From assembly GCA_965116875.1 (NCBI GenBank), contig OZ220733.1, forward strand, positions 1,792,001-1,856,000: a stretch of 64,000 nucleotides of DNA, read 5' to 3'. The notes under the pieces are model-generated. The model worked only from the letters and a program-made list of their open reading frames with translations. It was not told the DNA's origin and did not search any database. Positions within the stretch are counted from its first letter, which is position 1, and each line of letters starts with the position of its first letter. The position numbers and the translations under genes are program-made. Source of the DNA: Candidatus Latescibacterota bacterium. GTDB taxonomy: Bacteria; Latescibacterota; UBA2968; GCA-2709665. Below, in pieces: positions 51,029 through 55,888 of this stretch.

Positions 51029-51076
51029 CGGAAAGGCGGGGAGACGGAAGAAGAAATGCGGGGAGAGGGCAGAGGG

Positions 51077-51204
51077 GAGACGGGAGAAAAAATGCGGGTA
51101 GACGGGAGACGTAAGACGGTAGATGAGATCATTGCCGGGTATGTTATTCCTCGTTGCCTCCGGCACGAGAGAAAACCTCACAGGGCAGGAAATCTCTCCC
51201 CTCT
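51077..51204 (+). repeat. 128-bp direct repeat, copy 1, flanked by GAGACGG/CCGTCTC heptamers
   Basis: Identical by eye to 54336-54463. Confidence 0.9.
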
Positions 51205-51227
51205 CCCGTCTCCCCGCCTTTGCATTT

Positions 51228-51334: not shown

Positions 51335-51391
51335 TCGGGTGCGGTCTATGGAATCGGCGTGTGGCGTTTTTCGGACGTTCGGGGAGGAGCG

Positions 51392-52036
51392 GTGACCGAT
51401 CAGCAATTCCTGGCGGCGGCGGAAGCGTTGTCAGGCAGGCTGTCTGATGAGCAGGCCACGGCGTTCGAACAATATGAGGCGTTGTTGAGGACCTGGTCCG
51501 GGCGTGTGCGACTGGTTTCCCGGGGGGATCGGGACAAGATCAGGGAACGCCACTTTATCGACAGTCTGCGGCTGACCCCTTTTCTGCCCCGCGGCGGGAT
51601 TACGTTGCTGGACCTGGGATCGGGTGCGGGTTTTCCGGGCGTGCCGATCAAGATCGCCCGCCCGGAGGTGAAGGTTGTGCTGCTGGAGTCGGCGCGCATG
51701 AAGGGGCTTTTCCTGAACCACCTGGCGGGAGAACTCAAACTGGACGGGCTGTCCGTTTTGGCCGAGCGGGCGGAGGACGCCGGCGAGCGTGCCGAACATC
51801 GCGGGAGATACGATATTGTAACGGCTCGGGCGGTGGGCGCGCTGCCCCTCCTCTGGCGCCTTTCGTCGGGATTCCTCAAGAAAGACGGTGAGTTGCTGGC
51901 GTTGAAGGGTCCCGGCGCGCTCAGGGAAGCAGAGGAACTCGGCCCCGACGGCCCGGTTGTTTCCATCGAATCCATGGAGACCGGAAGGCCCCACGGGAAC
52001 ATGATGCTCGTCCGGATCTCGGCGCGTCGCGAGTGA
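51392..52036 (+). CDS. rsmG: 16S rRNA m7G527 methyltransferase
   Basis: RHFIDS, LDLGSGAGFPG, RAE, VTARAV, LKG. GTG start after GGAGGAG. Confidence 0.93.
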   Translation: MTDQQFLAAAEALSGRLSDEQATAFEQYEALLRTWSGRVRLVSRGDRDKIRERHFIDSLRLTPFLPRGGITLLDLGSGAGFPGVPIKIARPEVKVVLLESARMKGLFLNHLAGELKLDGLSVLAERAEDAGERAEHRGRYDIVTARAVGALPLLWRLSSGFLKKDGELLALKGPGALREAEELGPDGPVVSIESMETGRPHGNMMLVRISARRE

Positions 52037-52435
52037 TTACTCGTCCTGAACGAGTTCGATCAGGACGCCCGATGTGCTCCTGGGATGGATGAAAGCCACC
52101 TGTCTCCCGAGCGCGCCCGTCCTGATCGCGCCGGATAACGTGAGCCCCTCTTCTTCGCAGGTTGAGACTGCCGCTTCGATATCCTTGACCCGGATCGCGA
52201 CGTGGTGCAGGCCCGGCCCGCGCCCCGAAAGGAATCGGGCGAGAGAACTCCCGTCGTGCAGCGGTTCGAGGAGTTCTACTCTGGTCAGGCCGGCGCCACC
52301 GAGAAATACGGCCCGGACGCCTTCTGAATCTACGGTTTCATCCTCCATCTTTTCGAACCCCAGCATGGAATAGACGGCCAGGGTCCGTTCAATCTCCTCC
52401 ACAGCGATGCCCACGTGGTCCACACGTCCGTCCAC
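52037..52435 (-). CDS. mce: Methylmalonyl-CoA epimerase
   Basis: DHVGIAV, VELLEP, GLHHVA, AFIHP, GVLIELVQ. Confidence 0.9.
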   Translation of the reverse strand: MDGRVDHVGIAVEEIERTLAVYSMLGFEKMEDETVDSEGVRAVFLGGAGLTRVELLEPLHDGSSLARFLSGRGPGLHHVAIRVKDIEAAVSTCEEEGLTLSGAIRTGALGRQVAFIHPRSTSGVLIELVQDE

Positions 52436-52437
52436 GA

Positions 52438-54273
52438 CTATCCTCCCGGTCTGTAGGATCCAAAGACAGCGCGCATCCTGTCCGATATCTCGCCCACGGT
52501 CGCGCCGGCGGAACAGGCCGCCACAACCGCGTCGGTGATCGACCCCCCACACCTCGCCCGCCGTTCGACGACGTCCAACGCTTCGTTCGTCGCGTCGGTG
52601 TCCCGCAGGCTTCGCGCGCTCGCTAGCCTGCTCTTCTGCGTGTCTTCGGTTTCCTGCGGAGGCTGGAAAGCCGAAGCCGGCGGATCCGCGGCGTCCTGAT
52701 ACCGGTTAACCCCCACCACCACGGTCTCGCCCGATTCGATTTGTTTCTGCGCATCGTATGCGGATTCCGCGATACAGGCCGCGGTGAAGCCGCTTGCGGC
52801 GGCCTGCGCCGCGCCGCCCTCCCGGTCGACCGACTCGAGAACGGCAACAGCTTCCTCCTCCAGGTCATCGGTTATCCGTTCCACGGCACAGGACCCGCCC
52901 ATGGGATCCACGGTGTCGGGGATGCCGCTTTCGTATGCGAGGACCTGCTGGGTGCGGACAGCCATCCGCGCTCCGGAGTCAGACGGTAGCCCGAGCGCTT
53001 CGTCATAGGCGTTGACGTGCAGGGACTGCGCGCCGCCCAGGACCGCCGCCAGGGCCTGCAGGGTGGTACGCGCGCAGTTGTTCAGGGGTTGCTGGGCCGT
53101 GAGTGTCGAGCCGGCGGTCTGGGCGTGGAATCTCAGTCGCCGGGAACGCAGGTCCTGCACACCCAGGCGCTCAACCACGAGCCGGTTCCAGAGTCGCCTT
53201 GCCGCACGAAATTTGGCGATTTCTTCCAGGAAATGGTTGTGGACGCCAAAAAAGAAAGAGAAGTTCGGGAGAACCCGCTCAAGTTCGAGGCCGGCCTCGC
53301 GGGCGGCATCGGCGTACGCCAGGGCGTGGGCGAGTGTAAAACCAAGCTCTTGTGCGGCGGTTGCGCCGGCTTCTCTCATGTGGTAGCCGCTAACGCTGAC
53401 GGGATTCCATTTCGGCGCCTCCCGGAGACAATAGCCCATCAGGTCCACGACGAGACGCATCGATTCGGCGATCGGGAAGATATATGTTCCACGTGAAACA
53501 TATTCCTTGAGAATGTCGTTCTGGACCGTGCCGGAAAGCGCCGATGCCGGCAATCCGCGCTTTTTTCCGAGGGCCGCGTACAGGGCGAACAGGATGCTCG
53601 CCGTCGCATTGATGGTCATGGACGTGCTGATGCGGTCCAGCGGGATTTCATCGAACAGGGTTTCCAGGTCCCACAGGCCGTCCACCGCCACGCCCACCCG
53701 GCCCACCTCGCCTTCCGCATTCGGATGGTCCGAGTCATAGCCCATCTGCGTGGGCAGGTCGAACGCCACGCTCAGGCCGGTCTGGCCCGTTTCGAGCAGG
53801 GCGCGAAAGCGGGCATTGGTCTCCGCCGGGGTGGAAAATCCCGCGTACTGGCGGATGGTCCAGAGGCGCCCGCGATACATGGTGGGATATGCGCCGCGAG
53901 TGAAGGGCGGCTCGCCCGCCCGCCCGATCCGGTCCGGGGGGCGCTCTACCCGCGCGACCCCGGGTCGTTGGTGGTCGCCTTCGGCGGCGCCGCCCTGCTC
54001 GCGGCCCGCAGGTTCGGCAATCATTCCAGCCATGTCGTCGAAAAGGCGCCTGGCTTCTTTTGTACCGGCGCGCTGTCTGTACGCCTGAACCAGGAGCGCC
54101 CTGGGGTCCAGGTCAAGGACGGTCGCCAGGTCGAGACACCGCTCATCCGAGGGAATGCGTTTTCCGTTTTCTATCTGTCCGATGTAGGTACCCCAGACGC
54201 CGATCTTCTCGCCCAGCCCGTGCTGGCTGAACCGGCCCCTGCGCGCCTTTTCGATCATTTCTCCCAGGGTCAT
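52438..54273 (-). CDS. XRE-HTH domain fused to methylmalonyl-CoA mutase large (substrate-binding) subunit
   Basis: N-terminal SQHGLGEKIGVWGTYIGQIENGKRIPS, then PFTRGAYPTMY, WTIRQYAGF, GLSVAFDL, QNDILKEY, SGYHMREAG, QSLH; no B12-binding domain. Confidence 0.88.
   Translation of the reverse strand: MTLGEMIEKARRGRFSQHGLGEKIGVWGTYIGQIENGKRIPSDERCLDLATVLDLDPRALLVQAYRQRAGTKEARRLFDDMAGMIAEPAGREQGGAAEGDHQRPGVARVERPPDRIGRAGEPPFTRGAYPTMYRGRLWTIRQYAGFSTPAETNARFRALLETGQTGLSVAFDLPTQMGYDSDHPNAEGEVGRVGVAVDGLWDLETLFDEIPLDRISTSMTINATASILFALYAALGKKRGLPASALSGTVQNDILKEYVSRGTYIFPIAESMRLVVDLMGYCLREAPKWNPVSVSGYHMREAGATAAQELGFTLAHALAYADAAREAGLELERVLPNFSFFFGVHNHFLEEIAKFRAARRLWNRLVVERLGVQDLRSRRLRFHAQTAGSTLTAQQPLNNCARTTLQALAAVLGGAQSLHVNAYDEALGLPSDSGARMAVRTQQVLAYESGIPDTVDPMGGSCAVERITDDLEEEAVAVLESVDREGGAAQAAASGFTAACIAESAYDAQKQIESGETVVVGVNRYQDAADPPASAFQPPQETEDTQKSRLASARSLRDTDATNEALDVVERRARCGGSITDAVVAACSAGATVGEISDRMRAVFGSYRPGG
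53485..53500. promoter_or_regulatory. parS: parS site inside the mutase CDS
   Basis: TGTTCCACGTGAAACA, identical to 51319-51334. Confidence 0.85.
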
Positions 54274-54335
54274 CTTCGGAGTCTCCGTTGCAAGGCGGAA
54301 AAAAGGTAGAAGAAAGGCGGGTAGACGGTAGACGT

Positions 54336-54463
54336 GAGACGGGAGAAAAAATGCGGGTAGACGGGAGACGTAAGACGGTAGATGAGATCATTGCCGGGTA
54401 TGTTATTCCTCGTTGCCTCCGGCACGAGAGAAAACCTCACAGGGCAGGAAATCTCTCCCCTCT
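54336..54463 (+). repeat. 128-bp direct repeat, copy 2
   Basis: Identical by eye to 51077-51204. Confidence 0.9.
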
Positions 54464-54688
54464 TCCGGCTCACGTCTCACCAGGTGGTTGGGCGGAGTGT
54501 GGTCCTCTCCCCTCTCCCGTCTTCCGTCTCCCCGCTTTTAAGGAACACGCCGTAGGCATAAACGGGATCTGTGTGGCCTGCCGACCCTTCAGCAGTGCCA
54601 GTGCAAATGCGCTGGACGGATTGGCACGGAAAAACCCCCCGTACCCCCCCGTCGCCGGCTGTGAAATGCATTGATTGAGCGAAACCCG

Positions 54689-54815
54689 CCTTTTCTCCCT
54701 CTTTCCTTTAGGAGAGAGGGCCGGGGAGAGTGGTCTGCGCCATTCGCGGTCGTCCGTGCAATAGCGCTAACGTCCCTAATTCGGTTTTTGGTTTTCGCTG
54801 AAAGCTAACGGCTGA
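54689..54815 (-). repeat. Dispersed composite repeat, copy 2
   Basis: Reverse-complement match to 7419-7547. Confidence 0.85.
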
Positions 54816-54843
54816 TCGCGAATTCCTTTTTTTAGTGAGGCGC

Positions 54844-54867
54844 ATACACACACTTGCGTGTGTGTAT
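54844..54867. promoter_or_regulatory. Palindromic candidate operator
   Basis: ATACACACAC-TTGC-GTGTGTGTAT next to an AT-rich promoter-like tract (54868-54930). Confidence 0.45.
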
Positions 54868-55030
54868 ATAGGTTATAAACTATTGTTTATTAAAAGGTTT
54901 ATGAAATTCAATTGAATCTGAAAAATAAGAGCGGATGGCGTCCGGGAAGAGCGGGAACGACGAGGTCTGACGGGAGTCGAGAGGCATTCGGACCCGCCGG
55001 GAACGCGCCGGGTTTTCGACGTCCGAGCGG

Positions 55031-55888
55031 TCAGCCCGAGACAACCGGATTCTCGAGTCTTCCGATACCGTCGATTTCGCAGACAACGGTGTCGCCGGCC
55101 CTGAGCCAGAGTTGCGGATCGCGGGCCATTCCGACTCCCGGCGGGGTTCCTGTAAAGATCAGGTCGCCGGGCTGCAGGGTGACGACCCGGGACAGATAGG
55201 CGATCAACTGGTCGACCCTGAAAATCAATTGCGCCGTGTTCGAGTCCTGTACGATTTCTCCGTTCAGGATACAGCGAATGCCCAGATTGTGCGGATCTTC
55301 AATCTCGTCGGGCGTGACGAGTTCCGGGCCCAGCGGCGCGAAGGTGTCGAAGGTCTTGCCGAGCAGCCATTGACCGCCGGGTTTCTCGAGCTGGAAGTCC
55401 CGCGCGCTTACGTCGTGACCCACGGTATAGCCCGCCACGTGGTCCAATGCGTCGGACTCCGGAATATCCTTACCCGACGTTCCGATGACGACAACGAGTT
55501 CGACCTCGTAGTCGACGGACTGCGTGATCGAAGGGAGCCGGATCGCATCGCCGGGACCGATAATGGTGGAAGAGAACTTGGAGAATACCACCGGCTCCGA
55601 TGGAATGGGCATATTGCTTTCGGCCGCGTGGTCCGCGTAGTTGAGGCCGATGCAGAGGACCTTATCCGGTTTCCCGATGGGCGCCGACACGTGGACGTCG
55701 CCTGCGTGGATGCCTTCGCCGCGCTCTGCCGCCTCTTCCGCCGCGGCCAGCGCATCCGGACCCGCTTCGAGCAGACGTACGAGATCCGGCGGAACGTCCG
55801 GATCGACGCGGCTCACGTCCACGATCGAGTCACCCGATCGGACGCCGACGCGTTGCGAGCCCTGATATTCAAAAGTGAGCAGTCGCAT
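55031..55888 (-). CDS. Fumarylacetoacetate hydrolase family protein
   Basis: CIGLNYADH, DYEVEL, DVSARD, GKTFDTF, TGTPPGVG. Confidence 0.93.
   Translation of the reverse strand: MRLLTFEYQGSQRVGVRSGDSIVDVSRVDPDVPPDLVRLLEAGPDALAAAEEAAERGEGIHAGDVHVSAPIGKPDKVLCIGLNYADHAAESNMPIPSEPVVFSKFSSTIIGPGDAIRLPSITQSVDYEVELVVVIGTSGKDIPESDALDHVAGYTVGHDVSARDFQLEKPGGQWLLGKTFDTFAPLGPELVTPDEIEDPHNLGIRCILNGEIVQDSNTAQLIFRVDQLIAYLSRVVTLQPGDLIFTGTPPGVGMARDPQLWLRAGDTVVCEIDGIGRLENPVVSG

Follow-up and report, generated by a model that had tools for sequence, protein, structure and literature searches.

NadR, BirA and PutA are bifunctional enzyme/transcription regulators. The large subunits of split B12-dependent mutases pair with each other, and in the Propionibacterium shermanii and human enzymes an N-terminal arm wraps the partner subunit. 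RbkR is a bifunctional enzyme/transcription regulator as well, an enzyme fused to a helix-turn-helix (HTH) domain with product-controlled DNA binding (PMC5397151). The 64,000-nucleotide (nt) stretch of Candidatus Latescibacterota bacterium DNA analysed here, called the window (assembly GCA_965116875.1, contig OZ220733.1, positions 1,792,001 to 1,856,000), contains an open reading frame (ORF; 52438-54273, minus strand) with a 611-aa product that combines an XRE/Cro-C1-type HTH, a linker and the catalytic barrel of methylmalonyl-CoA mutase. The barrel by itself is an ordinary split-type methylmalonyl-CoA mutase large subunit and the head by itself an ordinary Cro/C1-type HTH; the unusual point is the combination of the two. 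No account of an HTH-mutase fusion was found in the literature, in agreement with the initial annotation of this DNA, which knew of no described example. Sequence comparisons indicate that the product is probably bifunctional, a working mutase subunit that also continues the DNA-binding role of a regulator absorbed into it.

Architecture, partners and distribution of the fusion

The HTH occupies residues 1-82 (54028-54273, minus strand), as assigned from Pfam HTH_3, an AlphaFold2 (AF2) model, sequence identity and the ratio of nonsynonymous to synonymous substitution rates (dN/dS). It is followed by a disordered linker of variable length (residues 83-109; 53947-54027, minus strand), by the substrate-binding barrel (residues 110-611; 52441-53946, minus strand), assigned from PF01642, TIGR00641 and PDB matches, and by the stop codon (52438-52440, minus strand). 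HTH_3 (PF01381) matches residues 15-58 with 32.4 bits against a cut-off of 23 in Pfam, which places the head in the XRE/Cro-C1 profile family. MM_CoA_mutase (PF01642) matches residues 118-605, covering profile positions 27-512 of 512 (E 2.8e-194; 646.9 bits against a cut-off of 22.1), which assigns the rest of the chain to the acyl-CoA mutase catalytic domains, and TIGR00641 of NCBIfam, the N-terminal, catalytic domain of the mutase, scores 645.8 bits against 303.8. The equivalog of the single-chain, full-length mutase, NF006944, scores 576.3 bits, under its cut-off of 876, and a Pfam scan found no B12-binding domain in the 611-aa chain; the protein is therefore a split-type large subunit and not an NF006944 equivalog. 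The motifs RQY, QND, RGTY and GYH are all legible in the translation, and about 14 mutase-like residues precede FTRG, as against 27-76 (median 58) in 61 unfused relatives. Thus the ORF, the Pfam scan and the translation bear out what the initial annotation had read here, namely one open frame of HTH, linker and barrel that keeps the four motifs and has a shortened N-terminal arm and no B12-binding domain. Proteins with both domains are currently annotated plainly as 'methylmalonyl-CoA mutase family protein'.

The AF2 model of the fusion, built from a 98-row alignment, has a mean predicted local distance difference test (pLDDT) score of 87.6 and consists of two domains and a disordered tether, with pLDDT above 90 in the barrel and below 50 at residues 83-109. 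Five helices are predicted in the fused HTH, at residues 3-11, 24-35, 43-52, 57-68 and 72-82.

The fusion is the one PF01642 match in the 5.45-Mb genome and so its sole mutase catalytic subunit. Residues 109-608 match the barrels of PDB entries 4r3u_A (485 bits), 2xij_A (449 bits) and 1req_A (436 bits). At aligned positions that we take to set substrate specificity, the fusion has Y, R and SVAFD where HcmA (4r3u) has I, Q and STDFD, and the human mutase also has Y and R. The Tyr of RQY and the Arg of (V/S)R(N/G)TY, which presumably hold the substrate carboxylate (an assignment from work on P. shermanii), are both present, as expected of a methylmalonyl-CoA mutase.

The partners of a split mutase are encoded in the same genome. 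The gene for methylmalonyl-CoA epimerase (mce; 52037-52435, minus strand; TIGR03081 125.1 bits against a cut-off of 114.95) starts with GTG, 2 nt after the TAG stop of the mutase, with GGGAGGA just before the start. A 131-aa B12-binding subunit (PF02310, 97 bits) carries the DxHxxG motif as DGHDRG, and its gene overlaps meaB, which encodes a 317-aa MeaB (PF03308, 255 bits); both lie at ~946 kb in the genome, about 900 kb from the fusion. The initial annotation had placed mce 2 bp after the mutase and had called for a separate small subunit and meaB, and these were found. A carboxyltransferase of the propionyl-CoA carboxylase (PCC) type is encoded at ~3.476 Mb. Three more B12-binding-domain matches (G000:C1:3143639-3143971, 718719-718991 and 3570857-3571150, in frames of 257, 1352 and 669 aa) indicate that the genome, G000, encodes other cobalamin-dependent proteins.

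The fusion is real, genus-specific, conserved and in-frame. When 168 genomes of the phylum were searched with the fusion protein, all 15 genomes belonging to one genus (g1) gave a full-length match, 79-91% identical, with 14 matches covering query residues 1-611 and one 11-611. In nine other genomes only the mutase part matches, from query residue 108-117 onwards, and 31 others have an HTH-only match (query 1 to ~89, 51-62% identity). A large protein collection holds 11 further clusters of 601-692 aa with both Pfam domains. Among the 15 fused genes the linker varies in length by whole codons, so that FTRG falls at residue 107 to 131 and the HTH and the barrel are joined by a flexible tether of 17-45 aa. 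Short-read contigs of run X1, which may be the source sample, span 52400-53777 and 53753-54365 with 0 differences, and a 534-nt contig of run X3, from another study, covers 53767-54298; across the HTH, the linker and the beginning of the barrel it shows 12 substitutions and 0 gaps. The read check that the initial annotation had proposed for this junction therefore found no indel in the contigs of runs X1 and X3. As for its caveat that the fusion might be unique to this assembly while relatives encode the two parts separately, the first part failed, the fusion being present throughout the genus, while the second is true of distant relatives.

Runs recorded as sponge and coral-reef metagenomes (X2 and X3) also contain contigs that match parts of the fusion gene at 97-100% identity, for example one of 236 nt without a difference and others of 416 and 534 nt with 4 and 12 differences, respectively; this hints that close relatives live in such habitats.

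The ESM Atlas yielded no cluster with HTH and mutase together, only plain mutase clusters with scores of 0.79-0.80. Among the best 150 of 21,033 representative hits (E <= 0.001), none aligns to query residues 1-87, the earliest best stretch starting at residue 88, and in 20 representatives picked from these 150 for their long N-terminal extensions, Pfam found no HTH. Two of these extensions contain an epimerase and three a B12-binding domain; the others have different domains or lack any Pfam match. Fusions of epimerase and mutase, of epimerase, mutase and B12 domain, and of B12 domain and mutase occur in other lineages (P0012, P0033, P0034, P0039 and P0078). Since other lineages fuse pathway partners there, the comparison suggests that the N-terminus of the mutase barrel tolerates large additions.

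Origin of the fusion at the FAH/rsmG locus

The HTH-only matches are standalone XRE regulators of 165-192 aa in other genera. In 12 of 17 fetched loci the standalone HTH gene lies between a gene of the fumarylacetoacetate hydrolase (FAH) family and convergent rsmG-mnmE; one more locus, a short one, shows FAH only. In the window the same anchors flank the fusion, with the FAH-family gene upstream (55031-55888, minus strand; PF01557, E 1.2e-78) and rsmG/gidB as the convergent neighbour (51359-52036, plus strand; PF02527, E 1.7e-38), so that the fusion and mce fill the slot of the standalone regulator. The standalone regulator also occupies this locus in genera without any methylmalonyl-CoA mutase. 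Judged by sequence and position, the HTH was not recruited for the mutase pathway and is the head of an older resident regulator.

A mutase-mce pair is present at the FAH/rsmG locus only in g1 and in a sister genus (g4), where the order is FAH, an unfused 558-aa mutase with its full N-terminal segment, mce and rsmG. The spacer between FAH and mutase in g4 keeps a ~30-nt element (…ACGCTGTCCAGTGTGTGTTGTCAAAG) that is found upstream of standalone regulator genes, and gives the appearance of having lost the regulator gene in its entirety; no relic of an HTH gene was detected in it by tblastn (E <= 10). At another place the g4 genomes encode a standalone HTH that has diverged (45-48% identity) and lacks the palindrome described below. 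At two loci, L022 (936-1335, genome G043) and L023, the opposite strand of the ~30-nt element reads as a near-consensus TTGACA-17-TAAATT promoter, and a degenerate palindrome is present too.

Within the fusion, homology to the standalone family stops at about residue 88 (M..LLADP), and homology to the mutase begins at about residue 109 (RIGRAGEPPFTRG, against KIGFPGRLPFTRG in g4). We infer an order of deletion events for the two genera, as the simplest history. The ancestor would have carried FAH, regulator, mutase and mce in this order, its regulator having an HTH at the N-terminus and a helical dimerisation domain at the C-terminus. In g1 a deletion would have removed the C-terminal half of the regulator and the first ~45-50 codons of the mutase and joined the frames; in g4 a separate deletion would have taken out the whole regulator gene, a diverged copy being kept elsewhere.

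Six of the 15 fused loci (L008, L010, L012, L013, L014 and L020) have no mce or rsmG match within the ~1.5 kb fetched downstream. The contig of L008 ends at the stop codon of the mutase, so that its downstream region is not visible; in at least some of the other five loci the operon partner mce may have been displaced.

The HTH half and its candidate operator

Purifying selection acts on the HTH as strongly as on the barrel, and the HTH is under selection for something. By the Nei-Gojobori method (91 pairs from 14 of the 15 fused genes, L018 having been dropped by a motif filter), dN/dS is 0.13 for the HTH (residues 12-80), 0.70 for the linker (residues 81-108) and 0.13 for the barrel. The linker, with a mean identity of 39%, evolves almost neutrally. 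All 17 positions that are invariant across 45 standalone proteins are retained in 14 of the 15 fused proteins, the exception being that of genome G053. Among the retained residues is the block TYIGQIE, which lines up with helix 3 as predicted for the standalone protein and by fold likeness would be the recognition helix. G000 has no second copy of the fused-type HTH; the fusion is the sole copy.

The 165-aa standalone regulator is modelled as helices throughout (pLDDT 87 overall and 93-97 in the HTH part). In Foldseek searches the HTH superposes on the DNA-binding domains of P22 c2, C.AhdI, SinR and 434 (TM-score 0.74-0.86, root-mean-square deviation 1.1-1.7 A; 30-37% identity), with E-values of only 1e-3 to 2e-2 (best 1.5e-3). 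The five helices predicted in the fusion and the match of its homologue to P22 c2, 434 and SinR are those of an XRE/Cro-C1 fold. The C-terminal domain of the standalone regulator matches no Pfam family and has no clear fold match in the PDB. A homodimer model of the standalone protein scores 0.61, against 0.00 for the best control, with agreement between runs in at least 96% of contacts and pLDDT of at least 86; among proteins of solved structure, 20 of 30 pairs and 1 of 23 single chains attain this mark of 0.61, rough counts that depend on the alignment used. The modelled contacts lie mainly in residues 98-164, the part that is missing from the fusion. If the HTH still has to act as a pair in the fusion, the mutase body must supply the pairing.

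The candidate operator of the HTH, so proposed from its sequence and distribution, is the palindrome ATACACACAC-TTGC-GTGTGTGTAT (54844-54867), which lies 570-595 nt upstream of the fusion ATG. With one mismatch allowed per half, its core, ACACACAC-N2-4-GTGTGTGT, occurs in the 1300 nt that precede the HTH gene at 27 of 32 loci; the other 128 kb of these loci contain 6 hits. Among the fused loci it was found in 14 of 15; the other, L010, has only 410 nt of upstream sequence. Six fused loci have it at -83 to -85, and the standalone loci at about -202 to -252. The window has no such site other than the palindrome at 54844-54867; G000 as a whole (5.45 Mb) has 3, compared with an expectation of ~0.3 from a rough count. 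A reversed control pattern gave 0 hits in G000 and 0 in 14 of the 15 g1 genomes.

The two other sites in G000 (C1, ~2131343 and ~2236626) are intergenic and have the form ACACACAC-NN-GTGTGTGT. The site in a spacer between an EamA-type transporter and a NIF3-like gene recurs in 6 fetched g1 loci, and that between a 214-aa gene (p214) and a WD40-repeat gene in 2 fetched loci, with 3 more sites adjoining WD40 matches only; the names EamA, NIF3-like and WD40 are readings of the sequences of loci L055-L065. None of the three sites in G000 is near the B12 subunit/meaB genes or the carboxyltransferase gene. One candidate site is upstream of the mutase-mce operon itself and the other two are at EamA/NIF3-like and WD40 genes. 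The three sites may belong to one small regulon or be conserved hairpins of one family.

In the single standalone locus whose ORFs were listed (L035, genome G063), a 146-aa coiled-coil ORF (2201-2641), without a Pfam family above cut-off, is divergent from the regulator gene, and the palindrome is in the spacer that the two share. No such ORF is listed between the fusion and FAH in the window.

In the region 54200-55100 no Rfam match was found (E <= 1), and sigma-70 and terminator consensus searches gave 0 and 0 hits, so that the promoter of the fusion was not located. Between the palindrome and the ATG lies a 180-nt interspersed repeat (54292-54471), resembling a miniature inverted-repeat transposable element (MITE), that stops 18 nt short of the ATG. 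A second copy in the window, at 51033-51212, is 93% identical to it. The repeat has terminal inverted repeats of ~20 nt (AAAGGCGGGGAGACGGAAGA / TCTCCCGTCTCCCCGCCTTT) and gives 120 blastn high-scoring segment pairs in the genome, of which 32 reach 140 nt or more; by these features it looks like a member of an active or recently active MITE family. Similar sequences lie between palindrome and fusion ATG in several other g1 genomes.

Function of the fused protein and comparison with known systems

In a bifunctional protein, the barrel would still serve, with the separate 131-aa B12 subunit and MeaB, as a split-mutase large subunit, and the HTH would still bind DNA, most likely the ACACACAC-N2-4-GTGTGTGT palindromes at its own operon and at the two other conserved sites. 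The fused HTH would thereby keep the job of the old regulator, and the mutase body would pair two HTHs in place of the lost C-terminal domain.

Several observations weigh against such a protein. Model confidence is only moderate for the fused HTH (pLDDT 53-80 at residues 3-82 and below 50 at residues 16-24), and the loss of the arm could affect subunit pairing. In the fused gene of G053 (L014; G053:C1:1648655-1653457) the first ~12 codons are in another frame (…ESRRHDRKGA… against …LGEMIEKARRG…), by its sequence either a real indel that would disrupt helix 1 of the HTH or a long-read error. The epimerase gene is directly 3' of the mutase in only 9 of the 15 fetched fused loci. Among the standalone loci the palindrome is present in 13 of 17, being missing from L045, L046, L048 and L049, and in eight g1 genomes, including G000, inserted repeats put it at -590 to -1105, a distance from the ATG that makes simple promoter occlusion unlikely there. 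The palindrome could also be an RNA or DNA hairpin instead of an operator. Every copy is bordered by extended complementary sequences of its own, and all three sites are just downstream of another gene; the hairpin at the copy in the window has a predicted energy of -18.2 kcal/mol (z -4.6), without a U-tract. The conservation of the core while the flanks differ fits recognition by a protein.

The initial annotation had seen in the protein an acyl-CoA-sensing transcription factor or trigger enzyme for propionyl/methylmalonyl-CoA metabolism. Neither the sensing nor the control of propionate metabolism is supported as stated. The HTH is older, occurs in genera without the mutase and has no candidate site near meaB or the carboxyltransferase gene. 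As a trigger enzyme, the protein would switch its DNA binding with the catalytic or assembly state of the mutase (methylmalonyl- or succinyl-CoA, a small subunit loaded with adenosylcobalamin, MeaB), which we consider unlikely, and there is only a limited chance that the enzyme would in this way report propionate/B12 status to transcription. Enzyme and DNA-binding domain share one chain, as in known enzyme-regulators, the candidate operator is upstream of the mutase-mce operon, and only the flexible tether separates HTH and barrel. The RbkR precedent of product-controlled DNA binding by an enzyme-HTH fusion (PMC5397151) points the same way. However, the HTH descends from a regulator of genera that lack the mutase, the other two palindromes adjoin NIF3-like/EamA and WD40 genes and not pathway genes, none is near the genes for the B12 subunit, MeaB or the carboxyltransferase, and the almost neutral dN/dS of the linker argues against a tuned allosteric connector. 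It would be somewhat surprising if this B12-radical enzyme doubled as an assembly- or ligand-dependent transcription factor that links propionate or cobalamin status to a small ACACACAC/GTGTGTGT regulon of which its own operon is part. Were binding of this kind true, the protein would be the first DNA-binding acyl-CoA mutase, caught near its birth, with the unfused and the regulator-only state still present in sister genera.

It is quite improbable that the HTH is an appendage that no longer binds DNA and that stands in for the lost arm (in solubility, subunit pairing or partner docking) or carries promoter-proximal translation signals. The mutase lacks the arm that its relatives have, the HTH is modelled less confidently in the fusion than in the standalone protein, and the palindrome is distant from the start in many g1 genomes, all of which would suit such an appendage. 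A mere spacer would not need the constraint seen in the HTH, which equals that of the enzyme; moreover, the 17 family-invariant residues, including the TYIGQIE block, are kept in all but one of the fused proteins, an otherwise widely kept regulator has no other copy in the genome, and the palindromes are conserved at three loci within the genus.

Translation signals bear on whether free mutase is made as well. A Shine-Dalgarno sequence, GGAGA (54282-54286, minus strand), was read directly in the sequence 5' of the fusion ATG, GGAG(G) lies 7-11 nt 5' of the HTH ATG in 15 of 15 fused loci, and this ATG, 24 codons before the motif GVWGTYIGQIE, is common to fused and standalone genes. In-frame ATGs exist at codons 81 and 84 of the fusion ORF, both without a Shine-Dalgarno sequence, and codon 81 is ATG in 13 of the fused genes, GTG in L010 and ATC in L018. 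The initial annotation had recognised no convincing internal start before PFTRG; this stands insofar as neither ATG has a Shine-Dalgarno sequence and no conserved internal start was found in the 15 fused genes, although the ATGs themselves exist. Because the upstream signal is present in all fused loci and codon 81 has no such signal and is variable, the protein is made from the HTH's own ATG and Shine-Dalgarno sequence. Initiation at codon 81 or 84, adding free unfused mutase and leaving the full-length form as a minor regulatory isoform, is very unlikely in spite of the 13 ATGs, as codon 81 is not preceded by a purine-rich Shine-Dalgarno sequence and is replaced by GTG or ATC in two genes, and the Met is also conserved within the standalone regulators, so that the HTH family itself explains it. 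Metatranscriptome run X18 gave short contig pieces only, such as 216 nt at 53530-53743, without transcript ends.

An assembly or sequencing artefact (a lost stop codon or a frameshift) has a negligible chance of explaining the fusion, given the open frame in 15 of 15 genus genomes, the in-frame linker indels, the 11 further two-domain clusters and the gap-free independent contigs over the junction.

The origin of enzyme-regulator hybrids is rarely visible; here a hybrid would have arisen by simple deletion, and three states survive at one locus in related genera, namely the regulator only, an unfused mutase without a local regulator gene, and the fused form. The locus offers a testable case in which an oligomeric enzyme may have replaced the dimerisation domain of a repressor, and the fusion may link gene control to a B12-dependent step in propionate metabolism. 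It also brings to notice an uncharacterised, order-wide XRE regulator and its probable operator.

The fusion shares a homologous barrel with HcmA (4r3u) and with the mutases of 1req and 2xij, and in its genome the B12 subunit and MeaB are encoded separately and the epimerase adjacently. From the large subunits of split mutases it differs in that the arm is cut to ~14 residues and replaced by the HTH and linker. Cro/C1 repressors (P22 c2, 3jxb; 434; SinR, 3zkc; C.AhdI, 1y7y) resemble the standalone homologue in HTH fold, at Foldseek E-values of only 1e-3 to 2e-2, and the fusion has its HTH_3 match above the cut-off. The standalone regulator, named in the sources only as 'XRE-family HTH transcriptional regulator', is like the fusion in residues 1 to ~88 (51-62% identity), start codon, 17 invariant residues, slot and palindrome, but where it has a C-terminal helical domain (residues ~90-165, the modelled dimer interface) the fusion has a 500-aa enzyme. 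With the trigger enzymes, RbkR and likewise NadR, BirA and PutA, the fusion has in common that enzyme and predicted DNA-binding domain (Pfam, 611-aa ORF) are united in one polypeptide, with its candidate operator upstream of its own gene. Unlike them, it has a DNA-binding head that comes from an unrelated resident regulator predating the enzyme at the locus, and its enzyme is the subunit of a B12 radical mutase that needs two further proteins.

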